NCBI GenBank assembly: GCA_965214095.1
Contig: OZ243938.1
Span: 4,416,001-4,480,000, forward strand
From: Candidatus Poribacteria bacterium
GTDB lineage: Bacteria; Poribacteria; WGA-4E; WGA-3G
Length of the DNA stretch: 64,000 nucleotides
Reading direction: 5' to 3'
Positions 51,858 to 64,000 of the stretch are shown piece by piece. The position numbers were made by a program, and so were the translations under genes. Within the stretch, counting starts at the first letter, position 1; the number at the start of each line of letters is the position of its first letter. The notes below the pieces were generated by a model. It was not told where the DNA came from. It saw only the letters and a program-made list of their open reading frames with translations, and did not search any database.

Positions 51858-52646
51858 TTACTTGTTAGACTTGATGGTACCCCAGGTAGTGGCTAATTTG
51901 TCCAGTGCCTCAACAGCAGTACCACGTTCAACACCGATATTCATCTCTCGAATTACTTCCTCTTCACTGAGGGCACGGCTCCAGATACGCACTTCATCAA
52001 TCAAACCGAGGAACCTTCTGTTTGCACCTTCCGCAGTTGTTCCGACAAAGACTGCAGACGTATCCGCAGTACCGGGTAGAGCACTTTTTCCAGGAAATTC
52101 ACCGATGTTTTCTCCATTCAGCCAAAACCTGTGCACGCCATCATCAACTTGACCAACAACATGCTGCCACTCATTAAGTGGGATCATGGTTGCACAGGTA
52201 CTACCGCCACCTGCACTTAAGTGTAGACATTCACTGGGTGATTCAGTATAGAAACTATATGAACGCGGACTGTTACCTTTCGCGACAATCCCTTGCCAAC
52301 GTTGGTTATTAGGTCCCATGTGTCTTTCAGCATTTATCCAGGCCATCACAGTTACACTTGTTTCAACTGTAAGAATATCGTCATGTGGTACTTCTACCCA
52401 ATCAGTCTCACCATTAAATTTCATGGCGTTCCCGAACTTTCCATCTGCTAACTGCGGAGACCCCATGATTTCACCATCATTCCCATATTGAGAATGATCT
52501 ATAGCAGTACTTCCATCTACTTCATCAAACGAGAAATATAGGATAAGAGATTCCTCGGAATCTACTGCTGCATGCGCAAATGACGCTACAAATAGAACAA
52601 GTATTGATAATAAAATCATATACCTCATTGTTGATTTTTCCTCCAA
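51858..52646 (-). CDS. Secreted LamG/ConA-like lectin-domain protein (likely start ATG 52628)
   Basis: Signal peptide; LYFSFDE, GKFGNA, WQHVVG, GLIDEVRIWSRALS; C-terminal KLATTWGTIK. Confidence 0.88.
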   Translation of the reverse strand: MEEKSTMRYMILLSILVLFVASFAHAAVDSEESLILYFSFDEVDGSTAIDHSQYGNDGEIMGSPQLADGKFGNAMKFNGETDWVEVPHDDILTVETSVTVMAWINAERHMGPNNQRWQGIVAKGNSPRSYSFYTESPSECLHLSAGGGSTCATMIPLNEWQHVVGQVDDGVHRFWLNGENIGEFPGKSALPGTADTSAVFVGTTAEGANRRFLGLIDEVRIWSRALSEEEVIREMNIGVERGTAVEALDKLATTWGTIKSNK

Positions 52647-52718: not shown

Positions 52719-53510
52719 TTACTTTATTTGGCCTTTTATTGTCCCCCAAGTAGTTGCAACTTTATGTCGTGGATCAACTGGGAAGAGCTCAAAATGTCCT
52801 TTATCCATCTGTTCATTGACCTCTTCTTCAGAAAGGGCACGGTTCCAAACACGAACCTCATCAATTAATCCGAGTAACAACCGTCCTGCACCTTCCGCTG
52901 TAGTACCGATGAAGACATTTGATGTATCACCACCACCCGGAAGATTCGCTTTACCCCCACTTTCACCAGCTATCTCACCATTGACCCAATACCGGTGTAT
53001 ACCAGCTTCCTGATGTACTGCGACATGAACCCATTCATTTAATGCAATCGCAGTATTACAGGTACTACCAGTAAAACCACCCGCAGGACCGATACTGAAG
53101 TGAAGACACATTGTTGGTAAATGTGTATAAAAACTATAAGAACGCGGACTATTTCCTTTTGCAACGATTCCTTGCCAATTTACGCCACCAGGTCCTGAGT
53201 GTCTTTCAACATTGATCCAAGCCATTGCTGTAACATCCTTATCAACAGTAAGACTTTCATGGTGTGGAATTTCAACCCATTGGCTTGAGCCATCAAGCTC
53301 AATTGCCTTTCCATGTTTACCATTAGCTAATTCCGGGTTGCCCTTCAATTCACCGTGATTCTCATACTTGGAATGGTCAATTGCCATATCATCATCGCTA
53401 AGGTTGTCAAATGAGACATAAAGAATTAGCGAATCTTCCGGCTCATTCAGTGCATGGACAAATGGTACCACAAGCATTGCAATTAATATAATAACAATTA
53501 TATTTTTCAT
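52719..53510 (-). CDS. Secreted LamG domain protein
   Basis: Paralog of its neighbours; GLIDEVRVWNRALS; C-terminal VDPRHKVATTWGTIK. Confidence 0.9.
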   Translation of the reverse strand: MKNIIVIILIAMLVVPFVHALNEPEDSLILYVSFDNLSDDDMAIDHSKYENHGELKGNPELANGKHGKAIELDGSSQWVEIPHHESLTVDKDVTAMAWINVERHSGPGGVNWQGIVAKGNSPRSYSFYTHLPTMCLHFSIGPAGGFTGSTCNTAIALNEWVHVAVHQEAGIHRYWVNGEIAGESGGKANLPGGGDTSNVFIGTTAEGAGRLLLGLIDEVRVWNRALSEEEVNEQMDKGHFELFPVDPRHKVATTWGTIKGQIK

Positions 53511-53603: not shown

Positions 53604-54389
53604 TTACTGTTGTCCCTTCAAACTACCCCATGTAGTGGCTAATTTATTCCGAGGATCAACAGCAAATATCTCAAAATGTCCTTTCTCCTTATGATCATTA
53701 ACCTCTTCTTCAGTCAGAGCGCGGTTCCAGATACGAACTTCATCTATCATACCGAGCAAATATCTGATATTTCCAGGACCCGCAGCACCAATCGCAACAG
53801 GGGCTGTATCAGCGTCCCCAACAGCGTCCACTTTCCCGTCAATCTCCTTGACCATCTCACCATTAATATAATAACGATGTGTGCCATTGTCAAGTTGGGC
53901 AACAACATGGTTCCATTCATTCAAACTGATAGGTGTGTCGCAAGAACTGCCACCGAAACCTCCTGCCGGACCAATACTAAGGTGTAGACATTTCGACTGC
54001 AAATGGGTGTAGAAACTGTAAGAACGAGGTCCGTTACCTTTAGCAGTTATCCCTTGCCAATTGGCACCTTCAGGACCGGAATGACGACCAATATTGATCC
54101 AAATCATTACAGTCACTTCTTTTGTTACAGTGAGGGATTCATGATGCGGGATTTCAACATATTCGTCCTCGCCGTTAAGTTCAAGAGCTTTGCCAAACAT
54201 GCCCTTCACGTGTTTCGGATCACCCTTCATCTCACCATGATTTCCATAATTTGAATGGTCAAATGTCTCTTTTCCATCAATCGTATCAAACGACATGTAG
54301 AGGATAAGCGAATCCTCAAGTTCATTAGCAGCAAACACGATAGTTGAAACAGACAGAAAGAAGGCTAAAACAAGTAATACTTTCTTCAT
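53604..54389 (-). CDS. Secreted LamG domain protein
   Basis: GMIDEVRIWNRALT; C-terminal VDPRNKLATTWGSLK. Confidence 0.9.
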   Translation of the reverse strand: MKKVLLVLAFFLSVSTIVFAANELEDSLILYMSFDTIDGKETFDHSNYGNHGEMKGDPKHVKGMFGKALELNGEDEYVEIPHHESLTVTKEVTVMIWINIGRHSGPEGANWQGITAKGNGPRSYSFYTHLQSKCLHLSIGPAGGFGGSSCDTPISLNEWNHVVAQLDNGTHRYYINGEMVKEIDGKVDAVGDADTAPVAIGAAGPGNIRYLLGMIDEVRIWNRALTEEEVNDHKEKGHFEIFAVDPRNKLATTWGSLKGQQ

Positions 54390-58958: not shown

Positions 58959-59753
58959 ATGAGATTTATACGTATCTATGTAATTATACTATTTGCTGTA
59001 TGTTTCGTGATCCTTCCCACACAGGCTGCGTTTGATGCCGATAACATCATGGGAATGTGGCTCTTTAATGAGGGTAATGGAGACACAGCAAAAGATTCGT
59101 CAGGAAACGGCAACGATGGTGAAATCATCGGTGGTGCAAAATGGGTTGATGGACAATTTGGAAAAGCACTTGAATTTGATGGTACGGATGACTGGGTTGA
59201 AGTTCAACACTCGGATGCTGTTGCGTTTGAAAAAGGAACTTCTTTCTCTATTACACTTCATTACAATGGATCAGCAGTAGGAGGTTCTCTTGTCGGCAAA
59301 GGCTATGAAGATACAACGCAAGTCAAACCTTGGTATTTGTTATGGAATGGTGGTGGTGATGCAAATGTATCTTTTTTTCTTCGCACTTCAGCAGATGCGG
59401 AGTCCAAAATAAATAGTACAGTGCCTGTCTCAGATGAAGAATGGCATTTTATTGCTGCTGTCGCAGATGCAGATTCAAAGAAAGTTTCCTTGTGGATCGA
59501 TGGAAAAAAGAATGTTGAGGGAGTCTTCAATGTTTCTGAAGGGTATGGTACAAATGATAGCGTTTTTCATATAGCACGACACTTTGATCGATATACAAAA
59601 GGTATAATTGATGATGTTGGAATCTTTAATGTTGCATTGACCGAAAATGATATGGACACTATCATGGAAAATGGTTTAGAAGAGGCTGCAGCAGTAGACG
59701 TTGTAGGGAAACTCACAACAACATGGGCTAACATTAAGCGAAATATAAAATAA
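58959..59753 (+). CDS. Secreted LamG domain protein
   Basis: Signal peptide (TQA-A); MWLFNEG, GQFGKALEFDG, GIIDDVGIFN; C-terminal KLTTTWANIK. Confidence 0.9.
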   Translation: MRFIRIYVIILFAVCFVILPTQAAFDADNIMGMWLFNEGNGDTAKDSSGNGNDGEIIGGAKWVDGQFGKALEFDGTDDWVEVQHSDAVAFEKGTSFSITLHYNGSAVGGSLVGKGYEDTTQVKPWYLLWNGGGDANVSFFLRTSADAESKINSTVPVSDEEWHFIAAVADADSKKVSLWIDGKKNVEGVFNVSEGYGTNDSVFHIARHFDRYTKGIIDDVGIFNVALTENDMDTIMENGLEEAAAVDVVGKLTTTWANIKRNIK

Positions 59754-59771
59754 AATTAGGAGATATATTTG

Positions 59772-60564
59772 ATGAAATATTTTGGATTTACATTAACTTT
59801 GTTATTTAGTCTCGTTTTACTTATAGCATATCCAAGTTATGCAGAATACGGTTATGAAAATATCACAGGATTGTGGCTTTTTGATGAAGGTGAAGGCACT
59901 GTAGCAGGTGATTCATCAAGTCAAAACAGTGAAGGTCAAATTCACGGAGCAACTTGGGTAGATGGCAAATTTGGAAAAGCATTGCAATTTGATGGAACAG
60001 ATGACTGGGTTGAAGTACAACATTCTGAAAATGTTGCTTTTGAAGCTGGAACATCCTTTTCGCTCACCGCTCATTTCAAAGGAACAGTGGTCGGTGGTTC
60101 ACTTGCAGGAAAGAATTATGAAGATACAACGCAGGCAACGCCTTGGTACATGATCTGGAGGCGGCAATAACAAAGTGACTTTCTTCTTACGGGATAGTGC
60201 TAATGCAAGTTTCAGACCAGAAAGTACAACTGAAATTGGGGATGATCAGTGGCATTTCGTTGCGGGTGTGGCAAATGTAGATACAGGAAATGCATCCATT
60301 TGGATAGATGGAAATATGGAAGCTGAAGTTGATTTCAATACTGACGATGGATACGGAACAGCTGAAGGCGTGTTTCATATCGGTCGACATTTTGACAGAT
60401 ACACAAATGGAATCATTGATGAAGTTGCACTCTTTAACGTAGCATTAACTGAAGACGATATTAACTCTATCATGTCTGACGGTCTTGTAAGTGTCACTGC
60501 TGTTGAAGCACAAGGGAAACTTGCTACGACTTGGGGGACAATCAAAGAACGCACTTCAAAATAA
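59772..60564 (+). pseudogene. Frameshifted LamG paralog (ORFs 59769..60170 and 60175..60564 are one gene)
   Basis: Both halves are colinear with 58959..59753. The frame breaks at 60156-60162 (TGG-A-GGC GGC AAT AAC AAA GTG). Confidence 0.85.
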
Positions 60565-60774: not shown

Positions 60775-60898
60775 TAAGCAAGTTTCAATATTAAATATGC
60801 ACATTGTCCATTGATAGCGGGCGGGGAAACCCCGCCCCTACGAACTCGGTGGCATTATCTGTCGAAAAAATCGGAAGATTATTATTTAATATTGCTTA
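60775..60898. repeat. Adjacent MITE-like element with TAAGCAA...TTGCTTA ends and a central REP
   Basis: Encloses GGGCGGGGAAACCCCGCCCCTAC, related to the REP at 7827-7850 in the opposite orientation. Confidence 0.5.
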
Positions 60899-61029
60899 AG
60901 CGTGCCGAAAAATCAGAATACCATTAAAAATTACAACATTTTAGTCACAATTGGTAGAAAAACGTGAGAATTGTGTAAATCATATACAGAAATACTGAAG
61001 TTTTCATTTTGTAAAGGAAACAAATAGTC

Positions 61030-62130
61030 ATGAAAAAGTCATTACCACTCTTTGCATTAGCACTGTTGATGTTGATTGGATTCGGTTGTGGTTCAACGGA
61101 AGACCCAATCGATGAACCTGAAGAGGTGCAATTAGAACTTGGCAAACTTCAGGTGCAGATAGAATCAATTGAAGGGGTTACAATTCATGTCCGTCTATTG
61201 AAAGATGGTCAACTCATTGCACAAACAGATTCTGATGCAGATTATGACCTTGGTGATATAGAAAAAGGTCAATATACTGTTGAAATTTCTGCAAAAGGAT
61301 ATGAAACAACAGAATTAAATGTAGAAATTGTGTCTGGTGAAACCAACGTGTTAGATAAAGTAACACTCTCACCTTTAGAAGTACCTGTTTCTCATTTGAA
61401 TGGCATATTAACTGATGAAAAAACTGGGAATGTATTAGTTGATGTTCTCGTCCAACTTACTGACGAATCTGGTGAAGAGTATGAAACCTTGACTTCTGAT
61501 GAAGGTGCTTTTACCTTTGAAAATCTACCGGTTGATCAATCATTCACTCTAACAATTAGTCAGGTAGGATACGAAGATCAAGAAGTTTCTATAGACGCAA
61601 TTGGTGCAGATGAGACCCTTGAAATAGATGTAGAACTTACGGCTATTCTCGAACCAGAAATATTGGGTCCAGGTGAAGGCTTAAGTGTCGGCAGCCAAGC
61701 ACCTGATTTTGAGTTGCCTGACAGCAATAATCAACCACGGGCACTTGCCGATTTTATTGACAACATGAAGGCAGTGATTGTCTTTTACCGTGGAGGGTGG
61801 TGACCGTTTTGCGTTGACCAACTCGGAGAGTTGCAAGATGATTATAACAACATAAAATCTAAAGGGGCAGAACTCGTCGTTATCAGTTCCGATACCGTCG
61901 CAGCATCAAAACAGACTGTTGATAAAAAGGCACTTAAGTTCGCTGTACTCGCTGATAGTGAAAAGAAGACGATTGCAGATTACAATGTCGTTGATCCAAA
62001 CAACAAACATATTGCCCGTCCTGCCACATATATAATTGATCAGAATGGTATAGTTGCATGGAAATTCCTTGATCAACGCTTAGGTCATCGCATTCCAACT
62101 GAAGACATTCTTGATCAGTTGGGTAAATAG
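61030..62130 (+). CDS. Putative selenoprotein: lipoprotein with two carboxypeptidase-regulatory-like beta-sandwich domains plus a peroxiredoxin-like (AhpC/TSA) domain, motif W-U-P-F-C (366 aa)
   Basis: ORFs 61030..61803 and 61831..62130 are in frame across one TGA (61801-61803): APDFELPD..VIVFYRGGW*PFCVDQLGELQ..VVISSD..ARPATYIIDQNG. Lipobox FGC. Confidence 0.9.
61819..61833 (+). promoter_or_regulatory. Putative bacterial SECIS apical hairpin 1
   Basis: CAACTC-GGA-GAGTTG starting at +16 after UGA. Confidence 0.75.
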
Positions 62131-62172
62131 AAAGATCTATTAGGTATGTTTTCATCTATGAGGTAGCAAGAA

Positions 62173-63291
62173 ATGAAAAATATGTCGATATTTATCATAA
62201 TACCTTTATTACTTTTTTCCACAATCGGATGTGAGACTACAGAAAATCCGATCAGCGAAATACCAGAAGTAGAAACTACAACCGGTGTTCTGCATGGAAA
62301 AGTATCAACAAGTGTTGATGAGACAATCCAAGTCCGTTTGTTAAAGGATGGTGAAATTGTCGCACAGATGGAAGGTGATGGTGGATTCACACTCAGGAAA
62401 ATTGAAGCTGGAGAGTATACTTTACGCATTTCAGCGCAAGGCTTTCAAGATACTGAACTCAAAGTTACAGTCATAGCAGGCGAAACAGTTACTTTGGATA
62501 CTATCACACTTGAAGAATTGTCAGGACCTGTCTCACATATTATTGGACTTATTCGTAACAATAGGACTGGAATTCGTCTGCCAGCGATACTCGTTCAACT
62601 TACTGATCAGGATGGAAAACAGGACGAGACTTTGTCCTCAGATGAGGGTATATTCAATTTTAATAATCTTCCTACTCGACAGAAGTTTACCTTGACTATT
62701 GAAGATGCAGACTATGAAATACATGAAATATCAATAGATCCAATATCTGCCGATGAAACTGAGAAATTGAATGTAAAGTTAACACCAGTTGGAATTGGAG
62801 ACAGGGAAATTGAACCTGAGGAACCTGGAGAAGGGTTACCTATTTTTACAAAAGCACCAGATTTTGAATTGCCAGACGGTGACCGGAAAATGCATTCATT
62901 GTACGATGCTCTTGATGAAGGAAAAAATGTTATTATTGTCTTTTACATAGGTGGTGACTGACTTGCATGTAAGACGCAACTCGGTGAGTTGCAAAAGAAT
63001 TATCAATTGATTCAATCAAAAAATGCTGAATTATTTGCTATTAGTGTTGAAGATATTCCAACAACAAAAAGGACAGTTGTGGATGAAAATCTTGAGTTCC
63101 CTGTACTCTCCGATTTAGACCTTGAAGCGGTTAAAACTTACAATGTAGAAAACCAAGAATTTCCTGGTTTTCCACGAGCATCCACATTTCTTCTTGAATC
63201 TGATGGTACGATCGTTTGGAAATCGCTTGATACTGTTGATAGACGAGTGTCAACAGCAATAATCATGAAAGAATTAGGAAAACTTTGGTAG
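62173..63291 (+). CDS. Putative selenoprotein paralog: lipoprotein with beta-sandwich domains plus an AhpC/TSA domain, motif D-U-L-A-C (372 aa)
   Basis: In frame across TGA 62959-62961: APDFELPD..IIVFYIGGD*LACKTQLGELQ..LFAISVE..FPVLSD..RASTFLL. Lipobox IGC. Confidence 0.88.
62976..62992 (+). promoter_or_regulatory. Putative bacterial SECIS apical hairpin 2
   Basis: GCAACTC-GGT-GAGTTGC at the same offset from UGA. Confidence 0.75.
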
Positions 63292-63358
63292 CTCTTCTGT
63301 CATTAATGGGAAATGGATAATCCATATCTGTCATGATTCAAAAGAAAGGATTAGATAT

Positions 63359-63961
63359 ATGAGACAAACTTGTATGCACCTTGTATTAGCACTATTGATA
63401 TTTAGTGTTTTAAGTTGTGGTTCAACTGACAATCCAGTAGATAGTTCTAAAGAAATTGATCCTATTACAGTTGCAGAAACGGAAGCAGAAGCAGAATTAG
63501 GAGAAGGTTTAGTAATTGGCACACACGCACCTGATTTTCAATTGTCCGATGGAGATGGTAATATCCACACACTGTCAGAACATCTTGAAAACGGCAAACA
63601 TGTGGTAATTGTCTTTTACAGAACGGGTGGCTGAACGTTATGCACAACCCAACTCGTTGAGTTGCAAGATAATTACGAAGAAATCAAAAGCAATAATGCA
63701 GAACTATTTGCTATCAGTTCTGAAAATGTTAGTATTACAAAGAAAACTACTGAGAATGAAGGACTCACGTATTCTGTTCTTGCAGACACCTATAAAGATA
63801 CTATCAACGCATATAATGTCTTGGATCAAACTAACGAAACAATTGCAAGACCAGCAGCATATATTATTGCTCAGGATGGAACGGTTGCGTGGAAGTCGCT
63901 TGATTCTTTTTCTAATCGTGTACCTACCGCTACCATTCTAAGGGAATTAGGTAAACTCTGA
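63359..63961 (+). CDS. Putative selenoprotein paralog: lipoprotein with an AhpC/TSA domain only, motif G-U-T-L-C (200 aa)
   Basis: In frame across TGA 63632-63634: APDFQLSD..VIVFYRTGG*TLCTTQLVELQ..LFAISSE..ARPAAYII. Lipobox VLSC. Confidence 0.88.
63650..63664 (+). promoter_or_regulatory. Putative bacterial SECIS apical hairpin 3
   Basis: CAACTC-GTT-GAGTTG starting at +16 after UGA. Confidence 0.72.
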
Positions 63962-64000
63962 TGAATACTACCGACAAAGTAATTGCAGACATCATGTCTG
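63961..64000 (+). CDS. Possible start of the next gene (partial)
   Basis: TGATG overlap with the previous stop; MNTTDKVIADIMS stays open to the window edge. Confidence 0.35.
   Translation, partial: MNTTDKVIADIMS

Follow-up and report, generated by a model that had tools for sequence, protein, structure and literature searches.

AhpC/TSA proteins with a U-x-x-C motif, in which U stands for selenocysteine (Sec), are a known class of bacterial selenoproteins. As far as the available text of each source goes, the Global Ocean Sampling survey lists them as 'Prx-like 1' (pfam00578, UxxC), with 225 selenoproteins and 2740 cysteine (Cys) homologues (PMC2398784 Table 2), and a 2026 selenoproteome review lists a 'Prx-like thiol:disulfide oxidoreductase' (PF00578, UxxC/UxxU, example WP_010940744.1) and discusses selenoprotein operons (PMC13188914). 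The family is thus already familiar to selenoprotein specialists. Here, we describe a tandem array of three genes in a Candidatus Poribacteria bacterium, located at positions 61030-63961 of a 64,000-nucleotide (nt) stretch of contig OZ243938.1 (assembly GCA_965214095.1, positions 4,416,001 to 4,480,000), hereafter the window. On sequence grounds the three genes are members of this known family, and we hold it to be highly likely that each is a genuine, unannotated selenoprotein gene in which an internal UGA is decoded as Sec. A literature search, which did not cover supplements, returned no published description of Poribacteria selenoproteins.

An earlier reading of the DNA, made without database searches (the sequence-only reading), had proposed that six annotated open reading frames (ORFs) reduce to three genes, each interrupted by a single in-frame TGA, and had placed them in the UxxC class that both sources list. 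The six plus-strand ORFs listed in this interval are indeed three co-oriented genes, paired in the same frame, with the members of each pair parted only by one TGA and 27 nt. The features are as follows.

61030-61803 and 61831-62130, plus strand: ORF pair of gene 1 in the ORF list
62173-62961 and 62989-63291, plus strand: ORF pair of gene 2 in the ORF list
63359-63634 and 63662-63961, plus strand: ORF pair of gene 3 in the ORF list
61030..62130, plus strand: gene 1 (A-type), 366 amino acids (aa), with a lipoprotein-type signal (Cys20), two CarboxypepD_reg domains and a C-terminal AhpC/TSA domain carrying W-U258-P-F-C
62173..63291, plus strand: gene 2 (middle type), 372 aa, with the architecture of gene 1 and a divergent FYIGGD-U263-LAC motif
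63359..63961, plus strand: gene 3 (B-type), 200 aa, with a lipoprotein-type signal (Cys20), a linker and an AhpC/TSA domain carrying G-U92-T-L-C
61801..61803, plus strand: UGA predicted to be read as selenocysteine, U258 of gene 1
62959..62961, plus strand: UGA predicted to be read as selenocysteine, U263 of gene 2
63632..63634, plus strand: UGA predicted to be read as selenocysteine, U92 of gene 3

Reading the TGA as U yields proteins of 366, 372 and 200 aa with the motifs FYRGGW-U-PFC (gene 1), FYIGGD-U-LAC (gene 2) and FYRTGG-U-TLC (gene 3), and no further stop or frameshift is met in any of them; lengths, motifs and the lack of other lesions were all as the sequence-only reading had given them. 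That reading had also remarked that each second ORF begins exactly nine codons past the TGA. This is true of all three genes, since the 3' arm of the hairpin described below contains an invariant TTG (Leu) codon that the ORF finder accepts as a new start. A single Pfam AhpC-TSA match crosses each TGA, spanning residues 220-344 around U258, 226-349 around U263 and 53-178 around U92, with scores of 110.9, 91 and 101.8 bits for genes 1, 2 and 3 (Pfam cut-off, 26). Two CarboxypepD_reg domains are found by Pfam in each of genes 1 and 2.

The genome (5.2 Mb, 41% G+C) contains the machinery for Sec insertion that the sequence-only reading had proposed to look for. selA (616 bits) and the full-length selB (355 bits) are without internal stops, a tRNA-Sec with a UCA anticodon (ARAGORN) lies approximately 150 nt downstream of selB, and selD (361 bits) itself contains one TGA; all four exceed curated cut-offs. 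It might be supposed that TGA is instead a sense codon throughout the genome (code 4 or 25), with Trp or Gly at this position. TGA is otherwise an ordinary stop: of the 2205 open frames with 300 or more codons, 432 end on it, open frames of 100 or more codons, read with code 11, take up 91% of the main contig (C1), and gene 3 itself ends on a genuine TGA stop; genome-wide reassignment is therefore excluded for practical purposes. The intact selA and selB, the dedicated tRNA-Sec with its UCA anticodon, and the Cys residues that homologues carry in the U column argue in the same direction, and we regard reassignment as extremely improbable.

Conservation of the TGA was assessed among related genomes. 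In 53 aligned sequences from 30 genomes (52 distinct copies from 30 related loci, plus gene 1 of the window), the TGA falls in one column and is followed by Cys at +3 in 53 of 53, much more than chance would give and in agreement with the invariance noted earlier for the three paralogues. Forty of 41 related genomes searched have a match; every listed match down to an expectation (E) value of 2.8e-12 has exactly one TGA, and stop-free matches begin only at E 2.9e-12, with identities of 30% or less. A phylum-wide sample gave matches in 142 of 151 genomes, 319 in all, and each of the 150 that were listed (169 were unlisted) carries one TGA, with an extra TAG in one of them. At the Sec codon, the listed matches include no orthologue with TAA or TAG, either of which had been named beforehand as speaking against recoding.

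Selection was compared on the two sides of the codon using pairwise ratios of nonsynonymous to synonymous substitution rates (dN/dS), with pairs kept where 0.05 < dS < 2. Median dN/dS before and after the TGA was 0.21 and 0.19 for the A-type (83 and 71 pairs), 0.27 and 0.18 for the B-type (65 and 73 pairs), and 0.20 and 0.29 for the middle type (3 and 3 pairs). With values near 0.2 on either side, the downstream part is as constrained as the upstream part, and the purifying selection predicted by the sequence-only reading was recovered on both sides (medians of 0.18-0.29). Cys-containing homologues provided a further comparison. A HMMER search with gene 3 returned 4729 proteins at E ≤0.001, and the full-length Cys homologues among them are at most 42% identical and carry the motif FYRGxWCPxC. 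This motif marks a subfamily that we take to be CDD cd02970 (PRX_like2), in which the second Cys of the CxxC presumably corresponds to the peroxidatic Cys. In an alignment of 132 rows (34 Sec copies and 98 Cys homologues), Cys occupies the U column in 90 of the 98 homologues and the +3 position in 96, so the replacement of Sec by Cys expected from the earlier reading is found.

These data bear directly on whether the three genes are pseudogenes with nonsense mutations, or whether the TGAs are sequencing errors. Such an explanation would account for a standard ORF list that shows each gene as two ORFs and for databases that hold pieces only. It is contradicted by the TGA that all 53 copies and all 150 listed phylum matches share, by dN/dS values of approximately 0.2 downstream of the TGA in genes with no other lesion, and by an independent sequencing run (X1, which may be the source sample) that carries the identical stretch. 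We give this explanation almost no credence.

The database entries themselves show what standard annotation makes of these genes. Gene 1 has 316 database homologues. Each of the best 120 of these covers 70% or less of gene 1, and all are 252-299 aa long except one of 422 aa; nearly all of the 120 end at the TGA, which bears out the suspicion that standard annotation would miss such genes. Three of the best 120 have an NCBI name, all labelled Candidatus Poribacteria bacterium, and these are two entries of 'carboxypeptidase regulatory-like domain-containing protein' and one 'hypothetical protein'. The top HMMER matches of gene 3 include pieces of approximately 92-101 aa, a length that suits Sec forms truncated at this codon. 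No gene 3 homologues of 110-352 aa were found, which fits storage as pieces below 110 aa but is no evidence by itself. A contig search beyond the bacterium's own and near genomes returned one unrelated Lachnospiraceae locus (31% identity). The close database entries thus embody a systematic annotation error: they stop at the Sec codon, and the redox domain is lost from Poribacteria proteomes.

A short hairpin follows each of the three TGA codons.

61819..61833, plus strand: hairpin of gene 1, CAACUC-GGA-GAGUUG, starting at +19 from the U of UGA, with the TTG at 61831
62976..62992, plus strand: hairpin of gene 2, GCAACUC-GGU-GAGUUGC, 7 bp, starting at +18
63650..63664, plus strand: hairpin of gene 3, CAACUC-GUU-GAGUUG, starting at +19

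The common form is CAACUC-GNN-GAGUUG, 15 nt past the UGA, to which gene 2 adds one G-C pair. All 318 cells (six core pairs in each of the 53 sequences) are paired; the stem shows one compensatory C-G to U-A replacement and four changes to G-U, and RNAalifold predicted this helix and no other. Synonymous sites within the hairpin are frozen: CTC accounts for 51 of 51 Leu codons against a genome usage of 15%, TTG for 53 of 53 (18%), and GAG for 52 of 53 (25%). Other conserved codons (Val, Phe, Tyr and Cys) have third-position entropies of 0.8-2.0 bits. Hairpins whose apical loops are rich in G also stand at +15 to +21 behind other Sec codons of the genome, such as CGUUGCC-GGUCU-GGCAGCG behind the fdhA Sec codon and GAAACC-GGU-GGUUUC behind that of a dockerin-thioredoxin gene, and similar hairpins lie behind the Sec codons of three HMA-type genes. 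A hairpin of set specification, which was chosen after the hairpins had been seen, occurs behind 11 of 18 candidate Sec codons, including all 3 in the window; the corresponding counts are 8 for the 432 TGA terminators and 100 for the 9166 in-frame Cys codons. The internal UGA of each gene would be decoded as Sec during translation, with Sec-tRNA(Sec) delivered by SelB and SelB recruited by this hairpin.

Several points weigh against this interpretation. All of the support is at the level of sequence. The hairpins are short (6-7 bp, -4.3 to -7.7 kcal/mol), single-sequence folds of 70 nt were not better than shuffles (z of -0.10, -1.69 and -0.38), and an Rfam scan of 60800-64000 gave no match to a selenocysteine insertion sequence (SECIS) model at E ≤10, returning only snoRNA and sRNA matches at chance level. 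An almost invariant stem leaves little covariation to see: two pairs show double changes, and the score is 0.038 as against 0.028 in shuffles. The hairpin also overlaps the protein motif QLxELQ, whose residues are kept in part by the Cys homologues (Q in 71, L in 88, E in 32 and L in 50 of 98), so part of the nucleotide conservation in the hairpin is owed to the protein. Contigs from two RNA libraries of one study (X17 and X21) cover genes 1 and 3, but their source is a relative 90-95% alike, and they are no proof of transcription. Beyond decoding, the lipoprotein assignment comes from a pattern match and the reaction type from residue positions only.

In bacteria generally, Sec insertion competes with release factor 2, and the main products could accordingly be N-terminal pieces of 257, 262 and 91 aa, with the Sec forms minor or dependent on selenium. 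The weakness of the hairpins would suit such an outcome, as would the fact that the cut products of genes 1 and 2 would retain two folded CarboxypepD_reg domains. The 91-aa product of gene 3, by comparison, would consist only of the signal, the linker and the first strands of the domain, and predominant termination is at odds with the purifying selection acting equally on the part past the TGA and with a hairpin frozen at synonymous sites. We therefore judge it improbable that the UGA mostly terminates translation. Sec decoding in all three genes is the reading that we favor, with considerable confidence: the machinery, the UGA conservation, the dN/dS values, the Cys homologues and the hairpin agree, and the proposal of functional recoding rather than pseudogenes made from the letters of the DNA is upheld.

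The N-termini suggest where the products would act. In 34 of 34 copies, a hydrophobic N-terminus is followed by [GNS]-C-[GENS], usually with the Cys at position 20, in a box that is non-canonical at -2/-3. From the hydrophobic stretch and the invariant Cys, these signals suggest lipoproteins facing the periplasm. The products would be exported and lipid-anchored via the N-terminal signal and this lipobox-like Cys, with the two CarboxypepD_reg beta-sandwich domains of genes 1 and 2 acting as putative spacers, and all three would end in a peroxiredoxin-fold domain.

The fold of that domain was examined in gene 3, whose AlphaFold2 model has a mean predicted local distance difference test (pLDDT) score of 90.4, with residues 1-40 low. 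In the PDB it is most similar to Sulfolobus Bcp4 and Mycobacterium AhpE (target-normalised template modelling scores of 0.89-0.92), and the active-site helix starts at residue 93, right behind U92. When compared to Aeropyrum pernix BCP (2cx3), C95 aligns with the Cys of SPVC, which we take to be the peroxidatic Cys of that enzyme; U92 aligns with the Ser three residues earlier, and the signature Pro aligns with Arg88. The peroxiredoxin fold and a Cys at the peroxidatic position are therefore present in gene 3; in place of the Pro and Thr/Ser that the peroxiredoxin signature PxxxTxxC calls for, it has Arg and Sec. The description of the genes as peroxiredoxin-like in the sequence-only reading holds for the fold; it does not hold for a Sec at the peroxidatic position, as it is the +3 Cys that aligns there. 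Consequently, 'peroxiredoxin-like' denotes a fold and not necessarily a chemistry.

Sec would occupy the first, thioredoxin-type nucleophile position of the U-x-x-C motif, with the Cys three residues on as the resolving residue. A Pro ahead of the following strand is conserved in 29 of 34 Sec copies and 82 of 98 Cys homologues, and no NCBIfam peroxiredoxin equivalog reached its cut-off, the best score being 53.3 bits as against 140 (PRK09437). Given Sec at a thioredoxin-type position, the conserved Pro and family models below their cut-offs, a thiol-disulfide oxidoreductase is favored; the positions of these residues indicate that thiol-disulfide (selenenylsulfide) exchange, by a reductase outside the cytoplasm, is the most likely reaction. 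A DsbD/CcdA-type membrane gene, of which the genome has one elsewhere, could be the electron source.

The proteins might also be true selenoproteins that act as thiol peroxidases outside the cytoplasm, with the Sec or the Cys at the peroxiredoxin position attacking the peroxide. The proximity of the fold to Bcp/AhpE peroxiredoxins, the alignment of the +3 Cys with the peroxidatic Cys of A. pernix BCP and the Arg ahead of the conserved Pro, present in 32 of 34 Sec copies (as against 10 of 98 Cys homologues), would suit a peroxidase, and the genome also has TxxU-type Bcp selenoproteins. The replaced signature residues and the equivalog scores count against one, as do the CxxC spacing and the Pro before the strand, both of them thioredoxin-like features. 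Peroxidase activity seems to us the chief alternative function, although an unlikely one, and the oxidoreductase assignment is preferred.

The array has a constant neighbor.

63961..64000, plus strand: start of a DUF362 gene, 370 aa, running off the window, with a twin-arginine signal motif

In the bacterium's own genome and 15 further genomes of the genus, the layout is an A-type gene, a B-type gene and then the DUF362 gene. A-type orthologues, with two CarboxypepD_reg domains and W-U-P-F-C, occur in all 16 genomes compared; the B-type (G-U-x-x-C) carries a single CarboxypepD_reg domain in 10 of the 16 and lacks it in the other 6, of which this genome is one. DUF362 lies directly downstream in 30 of 30 shorter loci, five of which are from another family. 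The intergenic gaps are 42 nt and 67 nt, followed by a 1-nt overlap in which the DUF362 ATG overlaps the gene 3 stop (TGATG), and a scan for promoters and terminators found no more sites than in shuffles. From spacing and synteny, the genes probably form an operon with the twin-arginine translocation (Tat)-signal DUF362 gene. The twin-arginine motif of the DUF362 protein, RRxFL, is kept in all 26 orthologues, and the protein has one invariant Cys; it had no PDB sequence match and no NCBIfam match, and its AlphaFold2 model has a mean pLDDT of 53.8. DUF362 belongs to the same Pfam clan as the LarA N-terminal domain, according to the available text of PMC11770544.

It is tempting to envisage the Sec-redoxin lipoproteins and the translationally coupled, Tat-signal DUF362 protein as one conserved extracytoplasmic redox module, in which the selenoproteins would keep a DUF362 enzyme or its substrate reduced and the paralogues would be tuned to different redox steps. 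We offer this as a speculation and consider it doubtful. If true, it would be the first functional context for DUF362 and a multi-selenoprotein pathway outside the cytoplasm.

The divergent active sites of the three copies may reflect substrate specialisation, as the sequence-only reading had suggested. A phylogenetic tree separates two old paralogue types and a fast-evolving third copy. The clade of gene 2 sits on a long branch (length 0.68), on the B-type side of the tree, and gene 2 occurs in the bacterium's own genome, G001 and G005 among the 16 compared; it is absent from the closest relative, G021. The X17 and X21 contigs join gene 1 to gene 3 without gene 2 (62152 to 63357), and a contig from a run labelled sponge metagenome has all three genes. 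Since gene 2 is missing from the RNA contigs and from G021, which has two redoxin genes, the third copy (window 62152-63357) is variable within the genus.

Upstream of the array, the spacer before gene 1 holds a perfect G+C-rich hairpin, GGGCGGGG-AAA-CCCCGCCC (60819-60837), without a following T-run. Before this spacer, a Laminin_G_3 (LamG-like) gene is split between two different frames on the plus strand (59769-60170 and 60175-60564; 133 and 129 aa), probably by a frameshift or as a pseudogene. Intact secreted LamG-like paralogues of 261-264 aa lie at 51858-52646, 52719-53510 and 53604-54389 on the minus strand and at 58959-59753 on the plus strand.

Further Sec genes are indicated elsewhere in the genome. 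One TGA is present in 9 of its 26 AhpC-TSA matches, and a Pfam domain crosses a TGA also in the dockerin-thioredoxin gene, a thioredoxin-TPR gene, two HMA genes and the FdhA gene. At least 19 candidate Sec genes are counted in this genome, SelD among them. A codon-model scan produced 408 candidates, most of them false, of which 18 were taken to Pfam; seven of the 18 (L069, L070, L071, L074, L077, L078 and L081) were rejected after this check, and L076 is backed by its motif only.

Contig C1: further candidate Sec loci L068, L072, L073, L079, L080, L082, L083 and L084
G000:C1:635945-636619, minus strand: F5_F8_type_C-like protein, L085:1-675
G000:C1:2185258-2185965, minus strand: F5_F8_type_C-like protein, L075:1-708

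The last two are secreted proteins with an in-frame TGA in GGGNAKWC-U-GP. Homologues were found in 19 of 31 related genomes, and among 39 listed matches, 60-84% identical to the query, one TGA is present in 16 and absent from 22, and 1 is broken. Matches with and without the TGA present the pattern of a Sec/Cys pair. Neither PF00754 nor 'discoidin' appears in the available text of the 2026 selenoproteome review, and these proteins, judged from their sequences, may be an unlisted selenoprotein family. At G000:C1:4984812-4989585 (L072/L001/L013), a large surface protein is encoded that combines repeats, a Big_5 domain and, at its C-terminus, a Prx-like W-U-P-V-C domain. Its gene has the CAACUC...GAGUUG hairpin of the window genes, and selB and tRNA-Sec follow approximately 1 kb downstream. 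At G000:C1:1416324-1417181, two Bcp-type AhpC-TSA matches lie side by side, each with a TGA at the peroxidatic position, in FYPKDFTGG-U-TAE and FYPRDFGRG-U-TAE. Contig C2 of the assembly (32066 bases) has 64% G+C as compared to 41% in the main contig and may be contamination or a foreign element.

The lineage appears to invest heavily in exported selenoproteins, which bears on the enrichment of selA and selB in sponge symbiont bins reported in the available text of PMC5649159. The frozen hairpin offers a simple search pattern for more copies.

In comparison with known systems, the SelL-related redox protein (NF040769) and eukaryotic SelL share a Prx-like fold and a Sec-containing redox motif with the window proteins, which have UxxC rather than UxxU and score 46.1, 21.2 and 41 bits against the NF040769 cut-off of 120. 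TlpA/ResA proteins are likewise exported or membrane-anchored thioredoxin folds with CxxC, ResA being the best NCBIfam match for genes 1 and 2 and a PDB sequence match at approximately E 1e-6. The cut-off of 170 for the ResA model NF002854 is not reached by any of the three proteins (58.5, 44.3 and 49.3 bits), and the structure is closer to Bcp/AhpE. The TxxU peroxiredoxin of Eubacterium acidaminophilum, in which Sec is reportedly the peroxidatic residue, has the same fold and Pfam family and is also a selenoprotein; in the window proteins the Sec stands three residues earlier, at the Thr/Ser position, with Cys at the peroxidatic position. The Cys-containing FYRGxWCPxC proteins of AhpC/TSA have the same motif with Cys for Sec, and AP, FY, D143 and R187 are common to both groups; at identities of 42% or less, the window proteins differ from them in the Sec and in the RP pair.

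The closest match is to the Prx-like selenoproteins themselves, with which the window genes share a Pfam domain above cut-off, U-x-x-C at the same site, abundant Cys homologues and a downstream SECIS-type hairpin. A lipoprotein signal, a CarboxypepD_reg fusion, tandem copies and a DUF362 link were not found in print, either by the literature search or in the available text of the review. The window genes differ from the described members of the family in their lipoprotein-type signal, in the fusion of genes 1 and 2 to two CarboxypepD_reg domains, and in an arrangement of two or three tandem copies with a conserved DUF362 neighbor that recurs at loci of this type.

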